DNA from: Chrysochromulina tobinii
Lineage: Eukaryota
Direction of reading: 5' to 3'
NCBI GenBank assembly: GCA_001275005.1
Contig: JWZX01003229.1
Coordinates: forward strand, 1 to 58,709
DNA: 58,709 nt
Shown: positions 20,133 to 51,321 of the stretch, in pieces
Position numbering within the stretch: the stretch's first letter is position 1
How the letters are laid out: every line of letters begins with the position of its first letter
Translations under genes and position numbers: made by a program
The notes under the pieces: generated by a model
Seen by the model: the letters and a program-made list of their open reading frames with translations, nothing else
What the model was told of the DNA's origin: nothing
The model's database searches: none

Positions 20133-21683
20133 TCAGCTGGTTGGATGTTGCAGCATCAGCTGCAGCGCTGCCCCCCTATACCCTGACGCAACTACCTTGC
20201 CATGCAGCTCGGCAACCTCCACCGCCGACAACAGGTTCCCATCGAGATTCAATCTCTCGAGGTGGCAAGCTCCGTCAAAGTCGTCCTCGCAGTCCAGCGT
20301 AAGCACGGCCGCGAGCACCGCCGCCGCTCCGCTGGGGCCGATTTCGTTTCGGTCGAGCCACAGGCGCCGTAGTGAGCGCGCCGTGCGCAAGGGCCGCGCC
20401 AGGGCGGTGGCGCCCTTGTCGCCGATGCTGTTCCCCCCGAGGTACAGCTCGACAAGCGCCATCGTGGGGCTGCCGAGGAGCGCTGCCACGGCAACGGCGC
20501 CGTCGCTGCGCAGATGCATGCGCTCGAATGTGAGGCAGCGCAGAGCGCCGAGGGAGTACGAGGCTGCGCAAGGCTGCTGCTGGCCTCCGGCGCTCGGCAC
20601 GGCGCCCCGGAATAGGCCGTTGCCGCTCGGCACGGCGCTCCGTGAGCTGGCGGCCCAGGGGTCGATCTCGAGTGCGAGATCAAGTGCACCTCCGTGGCTC
20701 TCGAAGGCCCCTGCCGGCCCAGCGCTCAAAGCATTGTCATCAGTGGTCATCAGAGGTCATCAGTGATCATCAGAGGTCATCAGAGGTCATCAGAGGTCAT
20801 CAGAGGTCATCAGTGATCATCAGGGGCACCCACCCAAAGCATTGTCGCTGAGGCACAGCTTGCGCAGCGAGGGCACCTGGCCGAGTAGCGGCTTCACTGC
20901 GAGCCAGCCAGCCGCATCGCAGAGCTGATTACCGCCGAGCGCGAGCGTCGCGAGATGGCTGTGTGAACGGAGAGCATACGCCAAGGTCGAGGCGCCCACG
21001 GGCCCGACAGCATTATGGTCGACGTGGAGCAAGGACAACACCTGGTTTGTGACGAAGCCGTCGGCGAGCGACGCGACCCCAGAGTCACCCAGCCAGTTGC
21101 GAGACAACCTCAGCTCCTCGAGCCGTTGCTTACGTGCAGCGAGGAGCGACGCTAGGGCAGGACCGGCCCTGGCCGTCAGGTTGTTGCTGCTCAAGTCGAG
21201 GGCCACGAGCTGGACGCCCGAGGTGGCGACGATTGCGGCCACCAGCGAATCCACTCCAACGTCACCGGCGCCGACAGCGGCGAGGCACAGCGTTTGCAGC
21301 GTGAGAGGCGCACGGAGCAGCAGCGCCTGAGCGACCGACTTGAGGCCAGCATCACCGAGCGTGCTTGCGCGTAGACGCAACGTCAAGATCGCATTGGACT
21401 GAGGTCGGAACCGACACGCCTGCACGTCAGATGCCGCTTTCGCCTGCGCGTCTGCAATCTCAGTTGAAATGCAAGACTCCAGTTCTCGAGGGCTTAAGTG
21501 CCTGTTAGAGAGATCGATGACCTGATGCACAGCCAACCCGTGCCGGGCGCCGACGCGCACCGCTAGGCGTGCGAGAAGACCGCTGTCGAGCGTCACATTC
21601 GCTGAGGCGCGAGCGGCGTCCGTCATTTTCGGCTTGCCGGAAGGGTCAGGCGACCAACGCCCGGGTGCCTGGAGTCTGTTCAT
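20133..21683 (-). CDS. RNI-like leucine-rich repeat protein; intron at 20711-20833
   Basis: Repeated LxxLxLxxNxxGxxG units (LEELRLSRNWLGDSG, LVELYLGGNSIGDKGA, LRRLWLDRNEIGPSG). Splicing joins LSDNALG|AFESHG in frame. Start codon uncertain (21683 or 21626). Confidence 0.85.
20738..20824 (-). repeat. Intronic 10-nt tandem repeat (CTGATGACCT-like on the sense strand)
   Basis: (catcagaggt/catcagtgat)n on the + strand, about 8 units, inside the LRR-gene intron. Confidence 0.9.
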
Positions 21684-21719
21684 GTTAATACACACAACAC
21701 GTACACAGGAGACGTGTGT

Positions 21720-21772
21720 GTGTGAACGTTAACACGACAGACGCGACAACCGGTGCTACGGCACTGTTACTG
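21720..21772 (-). repeat. Dispersed repeat A, copy 1 (partial)
   Basis: Reverse complement CAGTAACAGTGCCGTAGCACCGGTTGTCGCGTCTGTCGTGTTAACGTTCACAC closely matches 36459-36511 and 53137-53200. Confidence 0.85.
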
Positions 21773-49486: not shown

Positions 49487-49642
49487 GCTTCTCCAAGAAA
49501 ACTCCGGTCAAGGGCGGTGCAGCTCTACGCGCGCTGGCGCTGGGCGCGCCTGCGAAACGGTTTGGGATTAAAAAACTAAACATTCACATTCACAGCCTTT
49601 GACGTTCACAGCCAATGTTTAAAAATTCGACATTCACACCAG

Positions 49643-51321
49643 ATGTTCGGCTTGCTGCGTGTACTCATGCAGTATGCGGTCGTCGGTGCTGGCGGCGACG
49701 CCAACGCCTCCGTGCACGGCTGGGCGCCGGCGCGACCAAGCTGGCGAATCGCTGCGGCTGGCTATGTTGCGCTGCTGGTCGTGATGCTGGCGCTCCACAG
49801 CGTCTTCAAACGCACTTCCTGCCTGCGGGCCGACACGTCCAGCCTCAGCCCGGCGATCTGGACGAGTCCAGACAAGTCGAGGCCGGTCGAGAAGGGCAGC
49901 ACGAGCGGCCATCATCACCACAACAAGCTACTCTACGTATACGATATTCCGCCGTCGCTCGCTGGAGCCGAGTGCAGCTACTGCGGCGTGGGAGCTGGCC
50001 GTGCGGACCCAGGCTACATGACGGAGCACGCGGCACACCAGGCGCTGCGCGCCTCTTCATGGACGACGCGCGAGGCGCACGAGGGGCGCTGGTTTGTAGT
50101 GCCACTGCTGTACAGCTGCGCGAGCGTCTGCCACATGCGCCTTGGCGAGCTGCAGGTGGGCAAATGGTTCCGCGACGGGCGGGCGGCGGCGTGCGCGACG
50201 GAGGAGGCGGGCGTCGCCTACGTGCGTCGCGTCTTTGGCTGGCTGAGCGAGCAGCCGGCGTGGCGCGCGGCGGCGCACCGACACGTCTTCGTGTGGTCGC
50301 AGGACAAGGGCGCGTACCGCATCGCAGAGCACGACCCCGCCCTCTTTGCCGAGCTGCGACGCGGCGTCTTCGTACAAGTAGCGGGCGCCTTCATGCCAGG
50401 TCGACCCCTGGCCTTCGAGCCGAGCTGGGACGTGGTGATCCCGCCGCAGTCGGACCGGCCGATCGTACCGATCCCGGCGAGCGCGGCCGACGCCCGCGCG
50501 CGACAACGCACCGTCTTCTGGCAAGGAGCCGCAGCGTACGCACACTCCACGTACCCGGCACGCGTGGCTTTCGTACGAGAGTACGGCGCGGGGCAGTGGC
50601 CGAAGGTGAAGCTGCGCATCGGGCAAGGTGGGAGTGCCTCGGATCGCGAGAGCGCGGCGCGCGGCCTCACGGACGCGACCTTCTGCCTCTTCCTCTCCGG
50701 CCACAGCCCACAGCGATGGTCGGGCTCTCTCGGCCACATGATCGCGAGTGGTTGCCTCCTCATCTTCGCTGATGATGTCTCGACCCTTCCGCTCGGCGAG
50801 ACGCTCCCCTGGGAGAGCATGTCGCTGCAAGTGCCCGAGGCGACGCCCGCCGCGCTCTCGAGGCTCGTCGAGGCCCTCTCCGACGCCAAGCTCGACGAGA
50901 TGCTGCGCCAGTGGCGGGCCGTGCGTCCGAAACTGCTCTTCGCTCCGAGTGCCCGGGACGGCGCCGTAGAGCAGGTAGCGGCTGCGCTCATCCGTCGCGA
51001 AGCGACCTGCATGCAAATGCTCACCACGGCGCTTCACCCTCCCCACAGGTAGTGGCTGCGCTCATCCGTCGCGAAGCGCCCGAGTACGTGGCGTGGTCCA
51101 ATGAACAACGGCGCCGCTGCCTCAGCGCGCTCACGCGCGGCAGCAGCCGTTTCAGCCTCGATGACGATGCGGCTCGCATGTCCGCCGAGCAGAAGGCCGC
51201 ATGCTGTGTTGGGCCGCGCGCCTGCCCCGACGCCCCGATGCCCAGCCCCAGCGCCAGCCTCTGGAAGGGCCCTGGCTCGCTTCAACCGAGCGATCCGCGA
51301 CCTTCATCGAACCCTGTGTGA
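49643..51321 (+). CDS. Exostosin-family (GT47) glycosyltransferase; intron at 50975-51048
   Basis: TM anchor; LLYVYDIP, WFVVP, RHVFVWSQDKG, DVVIPP, ATFCLFLSG, ASGCLLIFADD..LPLGETLPW. Splicing extends the frame to the stop at 51321. Confidence 0.88.

Follow-up and report, generated by a model that had tools for sequence, protein, structure and literature searches.

Many spliceosomal introns of the alga Chrysochromulina tobinii carry copies of adjoining exon sequence, and these copies are duplications of the insertion sites of recent insertions. The system was analysed in the 58,709-nucleotide (nt) contig JWZX01003229.1 (assembly GCA_001275005.1), the whole of which is referred to as the window, and in related metagenome loci. 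The inserts, composed of repetitive sequence that we call filler, are pieces of other introns copied in cis and in trans, and filler is nearly confined to genes and to their sense strands. Intron gain here is real, extensive and ongoing. The window has a G+C content of 55–73% along its length, and the named members of the 90% protein clusters of its open reading frames (ORFs) are C. tobinii and C. parva proteins.

Nineteen introns were rebuilt from reading frames, 18 of them within the range covered by a preliminary description of this DNA and one at 18177, and all are of the GT/GC..AG type. Most are filled by units of 10–11 nt that carry branch-point-like motifs in the sense direction and place stops in every frame. 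Intronic repeats of 10–11 nt are said to occur in Emiliania as well, a report that was not found in the literature. The introns, together with three sites that are empty in the window, are listed below; an RNA joint is a junction bridged by an RNA contig.

18177..18306, + strand: intron of a DP transcription-factor gene; 13/13 copy of the upstream exon end at its 5' start; without filler.
20725..20833, − strand: polymorphic filler insertion in an LRR gene; duplication of 20833–20846 versus 20725–20738, 13/14.
22626..22753, − strand: intron of a PHD/SET-like gene; 8/9 terminal repeat and 21/23 internal copy of the upstream exon; RNA joint.
22856..23026, − strand: intron; 17/17 tandem duplication of the donor junction; RNA joint.
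23242..23418, − strand: filler intron, its junction deduced from the reading frame; exon match 9/11, not significant (p=0.11).
23990..24340, − strand: intron; 23/28 decayed copy of the downstream exon, shifted by 4 nt.
24651..24680, − strand: empty site; other alleles carry a 10-codon duplication and filler, as read-through proteins indicate.
25171..25257, − strand: intron, likely donor of the 24680 insertion; 8/8+2 terminal repeat.
27621..27879, + strand: filler intron with a GC donor; terminal match not above chance.
28144..28259, + strand: intron with a GC donor; 14/15 copy of the upstream exon near the 3' end.
28764..28953, + strand: intron; both junctions tandemly duplicated, 44/45 and 25/27.
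31068..31217, − strand: intron of a threonine dehydratase gene; 17/21 decayed copy of the upstream exon supplies the acceptor; RNA joint; present in 14/14 read-through alleles.
33471..33605, + strand: intron without filler or exon copy (internal negative); RNA joint.
37669..37840, + strand: intron of an F-box/LRR gene; 17/23 copy of the upstream exon at the acceptor.
38013..38148, + strand: intron without a significant exon copy.
38485..38815, + strand: intron; acceptor junction present three times, 27/27.
42188..42346, − strand: intron 3 of a presenilin-like gene; 9/10 terminal copy and internal junction repeat; RNA joint.
42431..42614, − strand: intron 2 of the same gene; acceptor from a 15/16 copy of the upstream exon; RNA joint.
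42732..42857, − strand: intron 1 of the same gene; reversed family-2 filler, 12/12 exon copy and forward copy; present in 42/42 close alleles; RNA joint.
50921..50939, + strand: empty site; in lake allele X the 19-nt stretch is doubled around 52 nt of family-2 filler.
50975..51048, + strand: family-2 insertion towards the end of an exostosin GT47 gene; duplication of ~30 nt in allele W, no insertion in allele Y.
51084..51120, + strand: empty site; in allele Y ~37 nt are doubled around family-2 filler, as two read-through proteins indicate.

Exon copies were evaluated against a null in which three exon letters on each side of the junction were kept and the rest was randomised from window exons. 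An in-register terminal repeat was found in 7/19 introns and a local exon copy in 12/19 (p<0.05 each); at p<0.025, 15/19 introns, or 14/18 inside the previously described range, carry one kind or the other. The four without a significant copy are 23242–23418, 27621–27879, 33471–33605 and 38013–38148. The claim of the preliminary description that many introns duplicate the adjacent exon thus stands, and its individual copies at 24340, 25257, 22753, 42431, 31068, 37840, 28259, 42188 and 42732 were recovered with the matches listed; it had missed the internal copy at 22753, and the copy at 50975 covers 31/33 positions plus 3 nt to the left. Two of its short terminal matches are at chance level: the 5-nt match at 23026 (p=0.15), where the intron instead holds the 17/17 junction duplicate, and that at 27621 (p=0.105). 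At 20711 the 12/12 copy is present, while the acceptor placed there is probably wrong, because intron-less alleles show 20711–20724 as exon; it would delete five codons. Splicing out 18177..18306 restores the DP motif, and the intron at 23990..24340 holds an array of a 23-nt unit whose copy number differs between alleles. The intronic copies at 31068–31071 and 42188–42191 end in CAG, the exon in AAG, which looks like improvement into an acceptor.

Several of the junctions are bridged in transcripts. Among the matches listed, RNA contigs of lake populations join across at least seven window introns (22626–22753, 22856–23026, 31068–31217, 33471–33605, 42188–42346, 42431–42614 and 42732–42857). 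DNA-type alleles are fixed for the introns at 31068 (14/14), 42732 (42/42) and 33471 (all informative members), so the RNA joints at these three reflect splicing. The joint at 50975 is ambiguous, the same contig carrying another allele, and a contig that passes 24681 but reaches <31 nt beyond was left out of the counts.

Five sites in three window genes (20725, 24680, 50921, 50975 and 51084) are polymorphic between filled and empty alleles, and the empty ones carry the target stretch in single copy. RNA contig X1 (1793 nt; also X2) follows the window to 50939, continues through 52 nt of filler with an acceptor at its end, and resumes at 50921. Among 31 listed read-through proteins of the GT47 gene, 23 are informative: 14 are filled at 50921, 7 at 50975 and 2 at 51084, the last two being empty at both other positions. 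Three mutually different filled sites lie within 165 nt. Allele X is the commonest in the protein sample, and its insert, which is retained in polyA RNA contigs, shifts the frame just after the GT47 domain. Retention may be tolerated because 50921 and 50975 lie just after this domain, which would also explain three sites in 165 nt.

In the LRR gene, 4/9 informative proteins stop in the filler at 20725 and 5/9 read through, with sequences otherwise near-identical; the read-through set comprises four from metagenome contigs of up to 32 kb and one gene model. The 47 proteins listed for the PHD/SET-like gene divide into 18 that stop after the 10-codon stretch at 24680, 5 that begin anew in filler ahead of these 10 codons, 19 that read through, the window's among them, and 5 without information on the site. 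In the tree of this site the sister lineage is entirely empty (10/10 rows outside a 97/93 clade). Among presenilin-like proteins, two distant relatives (at 59% and 48% identity, on contigs of up to 12.2 and 6.4 kb) run uninterrupted across each of the three intron positions of the window. Since close members from those sources continue into the introns, we take both to be gene calls made without splicing. Of the two possibilities that the preliminary description had raised, gain and remodelling, the empty and filled alleles and the intron-less relatives show gain at new positions. No intron presence/absence was found in the paralog pairs L060/L069, L036/L050 and L016/L023 or in the strain pairs L003/L005 and L011/L047. 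At 32585, 33041, 33621 and 35589 lake alleles differ by indels of 8–27 nt, one of which is a 27-nt tandem duplicate in the window.

The same structures recur beyond the window, in many independent assemblies, proteins and RNA contigs. A wider scan with the commonest acceptor motif gave 131 distinct metagenome loci out of an estimated 2600 stretches; after 17 redundant loci were dropped, 114 loci (669,797 nt, ~1% of a genome) remained, all chosen by this one motif followed by G. The downstream exon is copied upstream at 104/239 terminal acceptors versus 3/941 in a swapped control, which, with the null in the window, places the exon–intron similarity noted earlier above controls. The duplication-bearing introns have a median length of 83 nt. 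Their copies start with GT in 81 cases and GC in 12; 79 are simple and 25 are whole-junction repeats. Simple copies are 10–55 nt long (quartiles 18/23/28), 94.5% identical and perfect in 29/79; duplications scoring below the detection floor of 10 are uncounted. Coding sequence flanks 43 of the 73 simple GT/GC cases on both sides; splicing leaves 37 of these in one frame, and in 32 a stop or frameshift makes splicing necessary.

Filler clusters not hit by the search pattern were examined separately, and a flanking repeat was found in 63/229 versus 4/898 in the swapped control. In 23 of the 63 repeats the donor lies at the duplicate's start (type B), in 10 the acceptor lies at its end (type A), in 10 both sites lie inside the duplicate (type C), and 20 have no in-register sites. 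L024 (+ strand, ~10540) and L103 (− strand, ~150) have a 17-nt exon stretch in common beside different filler inserts, a possible case of parallel gain at a homologous site.

The inserts lack the signature of a transposase with a fixed target-site duplication (TSD), as the preliminary description had noted. The duplications vary in length, no insert (0/78) has inverted ends scoring >=8 (>=6 in 9/78 versus 9% in the control), and none (0/79) has a run of >=5 A or T as a 3' tail. The 79 inserts have 76 different starts, and 57 of them have the last 12 nt in common. Type B has a fixed 3' end and a ragged 5' end, type A the reverse, and in type C both ends are ragged. Only 18/3081 insert pairs are at least 80% alike end to end, i.e. 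there is no end-to-end family with defined boundaries, and no longer shared master element was found in the 670 kb of loci. At the ragged joins microhomology averages 1.0 versus 0.35 nt (p=4e-4; 49/79 joins testable), and left overlap is absent in 10/66 simple GT cases.

In several cases a likely donor intron can be named. A neighbouring intron is the best match for 22/349 clusters versus 2.5 expected; a 3' end of >=32 nt is shared by 6/217 near pairs versus 100/28011 far pairs (p=2e-4), and neighbour matches reach 56/56, 54/57 and ~100 nt. The 24680 insert ends with a peptide signature of intron 25171–25257, 490 nt upstream, a variant present in 3/227 acceptors, and its duplicate ends in 9 nt that also start the filler of that intron. 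The inserts at 50921 and 50975 have in common one core variant found in 2/46 copies. In cis, one intron of L033 carries the exon copy of another 2.9 kb away. In trans, a C2-domain gene (L125) and an unrelated gene (L061) contain the same 73-nt intron (71/73), the first 20 nt of which duplicate the exon of L125, while the site in L061 matches over 14 nt only. Filler is reversed at 42828–42857, the start of intron 42732, and at 28460–28510. The latter segment lies in a sialyltransferase-like gene frame (28320–28530) and matches a rare unit of an intron 270 nt downstream; 28320–28530 also holds a second repeat type found in L133, and may be an exonised insert or an unrecognised intron.

A calibrated coding model placed a coding sense flank beside 276/308 filler clusters; 271/308 are sense-oriented, and 17/308 look non-coding on both sides. 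Their spacing is clumped (CV, the coefficient of variation, 1.41), and no filler introns occur in the 13-kb dynein heavy chain gene (700–13500), in which apparent frameshifts near 1770, 2270, 5750 and 5960 may be assembly errors. A dispersed intergenic repeat of 58 nt, 93% identical between two window copies and with high summed depth in run X15, is unlike the intron filler and is possibly the end of a non-autonomous element. Its copies are:

21715–21772, 36459–36516, ~47440–47500 and 53130–53190 in the window; 8100–8270 in L018; 4350–4520 in L019.

An Rfam search of the window gave no match, and a Pfam search of 25 window ORFs no mobility domain. The family-1 motif had no match in viral contigs. 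Family 2 had one, in the viral-class contig L133 (2001–2060), where filler with an acceptor stands at the contig end; host contamination and an endogenous element are the options. A single match in a bacterial metagenome-assembled genome (MAG), L001, was dropped as a chance hit.

As the mechanism, we cautiously favour as probable a homology-guided template switching during DNA repair or fork restart, by which intron-derived filler is inserted between two copies of the target. A growing DNA end would leave its own gene 10–55 nt past a proto-splice site and pair, over 1–14 matching bases, with an intron already present, which would often be a neighbour within that gene and sometimes unlinked. 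The 3' part, 5' part, middle or whole of the donor intron would be copied, and the end would rejoin its own gene upstream of the exit point, whereby the site would be duplicated. Where the duplicate's GT or AG comes into register with the copied branch-point repeats and acceptor, splicing would restore the original mRNA and the new intron would become a new donor; products that are out of register would survive nowhere but within introns or at gene ends that can be spared. Subsequent misaligned exchange between the copies may produce tandem junction repeats or precise loss, and the intronic copy would decay. Template switching would explain the variable duplications, the fragments from any part of an intron, the neighbour bias, the carried exon copies, the flank homology and the reversed inserts; reversed filler at the start of intron 42732 is compatible with a DNA template. 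The enzyme, the repair pathway, the DNA template and the direction of most events are what we infer from these footprints. The templated or slippage repair synthesis proposed in the preliminary description is thereby supported and refined: most exon copies form one arm of a duplicated target that encloses an insert, the source of the insert is another intron, and tandem repeats spanning a junction arise in a secondary step of remodelling.

By extension, and more tentatively, these may be transposase-free, self-propagating spliceosomal introns. Repair would copy them to nearby or flank-matching sites, and the long direct repeat would make each both a new donor cassette and precisely removable, so that they are born, move and die in living populations while invisible to Introner searches.

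Several observations weigh against this account. Conserved filler cores occur in all loci and a ~55-nt family in at least five unlinked loci, as would be the case for an Introner family, and a master element may lie outside the ~1% of a genome that was covered. A neighbour is the best match in only ~6% of clusters, the share of clusters with a flanking repeat is lower outside the search pattern, and exon-side microhomology at the acceptor join is 2.64 nt in near pairs (n=11) versus 2.85 in GT–GT controls. Microhomology at the ragged joins is short, which is also expected of retrotransposition. The alleles at 24680, 51084 and 20725 were read from proteins and not from DNA. In the 24680 tree the window's clade mixes filled with empty alleles (4 changes, weakly supported), and some of the empty ones may therefore have arisen by loss. 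RNA contigs from two libraries keep the 50921 insert, the two gene models continue into the 50975 insert, and no young intron with a long duplication was directly seen to be spliced.

The best surviving alternative is copying from RNA, with nascent pre-mRNA or excised intron RNA as repair template and reverse transcription primed at a nick or break. It would account for the gene confinement and sense orientation of filler, for inserts that often have an acceptor as their exact end or a donor as their start (the 10/66 cases above), for the same-gene enrichment and for the lack of general exon-side homology. Orientation is, however, explained by locality and selection alone, the reversed filler at both places does not fit, and the 14-nt flank match of L061 and L125 fits strand invasion; we consider an RNA template unlikely.

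Somewhat less likely still is a non-autonomous Introner of variable duplication length, moved by a retroelement (LINE/Penelope-like target-primed reverse transcription) or by a Replitron-like transposase. Target-primed reverse transcription leaves a fixed 3' end, a ragged 5' end, a variable TSD and a poly(A) or simple tail. The ends of type B inserts, the variable duplications, the short microhomology and the conserved cores in unlinked loci resemble such a product, but types A and C also occur (10 and 10 of 63), the inserts have neither tail nor inverted ends and no longer master in the 670 kb of loci, and they carry exon copies of other genes at matching sites with a bias to neighbours. Moreover, filler is nearly absent from intergenic DNA, where the unrelated 58-nt repeat does sit. 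The accessible part of one study (PMC10288648) describes variable duplications by Replitrons in Chlamydomonas and reports a single locus for C. tobinii.

A third explanation, that old introns only gain exon copies by slippage at their ends and no new positions arise, is quite improbable. Junction-spanning tandem repeats (25/104) and fixed introns with decayed copies (31068) are as it predicts, and the empty alleles could be precise losses between direct repeats. Three different filled sites within 165 nt, a sister lineage empty at 24680, distant relatives without three positions and 29/79 perfect copies are difficult to reconcile with it, and as an account of origin, as opposed to a secondary layer, it is largely refuted. 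Chance similarity or assembly artefact would fit the two chance-level matches of the preliminary description and the few apparent frameshifts in the dynein gene, but is practically excluded by the controls (3/941 and 4/898) and by recurrence in independent assemblies, proteins and RNA contigs.

The origin of new spliceosomal introns has long been open, and recent surveys see transposons as the main source of the gain that is going on today. A culturable freshwater alga with a small genome here shows gain under way, with empty and filled alleles, identifiable donors and a footprint unlike that of described Introners. Repair-driven gain, intron transfer between genes and intron 'migration' become directly testable, and by implication Introner surveys based on similarity would miss a whole mode of gain. 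A search of freely accessible literature and of parts of the Introner-survey supplements found no description of such a system; further comparison literature, partly accessible, includes PMC4580454 and PMC11282704.

In the accessible parts of the Introner surveys (Gozashti et al., 2022, PMC9860276; 2025, PMC12130899; Roy et al., bioRxiv 10.1101/2020.10.14.339549), TSDs are 3–9 bp and fixed per family, and marine Chrysochromulina MAGs have Introners with a 4-bp TSD and no terminal inverted repeat (TIR). As far as these parts extend, the 2025 dataset gives C. tobinii 0 Introner families, and the 2022 survey names it in the genome list alone. Like Introners, the inserts described here carry one splice site and recruit the other from the target duplication, or recruit both, and related intron sequences occupy unrelated gene positions that are recent or polymorphic. 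Unlike them, they have variable duplications of 10–55 nt, ragged ends, neighbouring or flank-matching donors and, in some cases, the exon copy of the donor; the duplications counted, all above the detection floor, are not the short fixed TSDs of DNA-transposon Introners, and TIRs are absent.

Intron gain in Daphnia pulex has been attributed to staggered double-strand-break repair, with repeats of 4–12 bp and AT-rich inserts of unlocated source (Li et al., 2014, PMC4202315, in part). Both systems have presence/absence polymorphism, direct repeats at the ends of introns, internal repeats left by repeated events, gains that are nearly parallel and small codon changes on splicing, whereas the repeats here are longer and the source is identifiable as other introns, which supply branch points along with a splice site. 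Tandem genomic duplication of an AG|GT proto-splice site also creates introns (reviewed in PMC3296678 and PMC8469720, consulted in part). Type C resembles it in taking both splice sites from the duplicate (10/63 unselected repeats), but the copies are separated by foreign filler, and in types A and B one of the sites comes from the insert. A further likeness is to the templated insertions of alternative end joining or patch-mediated repair, for which rice data are cited (PMC7407515): a duplication with an insert from nearby or ectopic DNA, short microhomology, and direct or inverted orientation. The accessible text of that paper does not report them as a self-renewing source of spliceosomal introns. 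Set beside these systems, the introns of C. tobinii represent a new variant of duplication-flanked intron gain, and possibly a transposase-free, self-propagating intron system.

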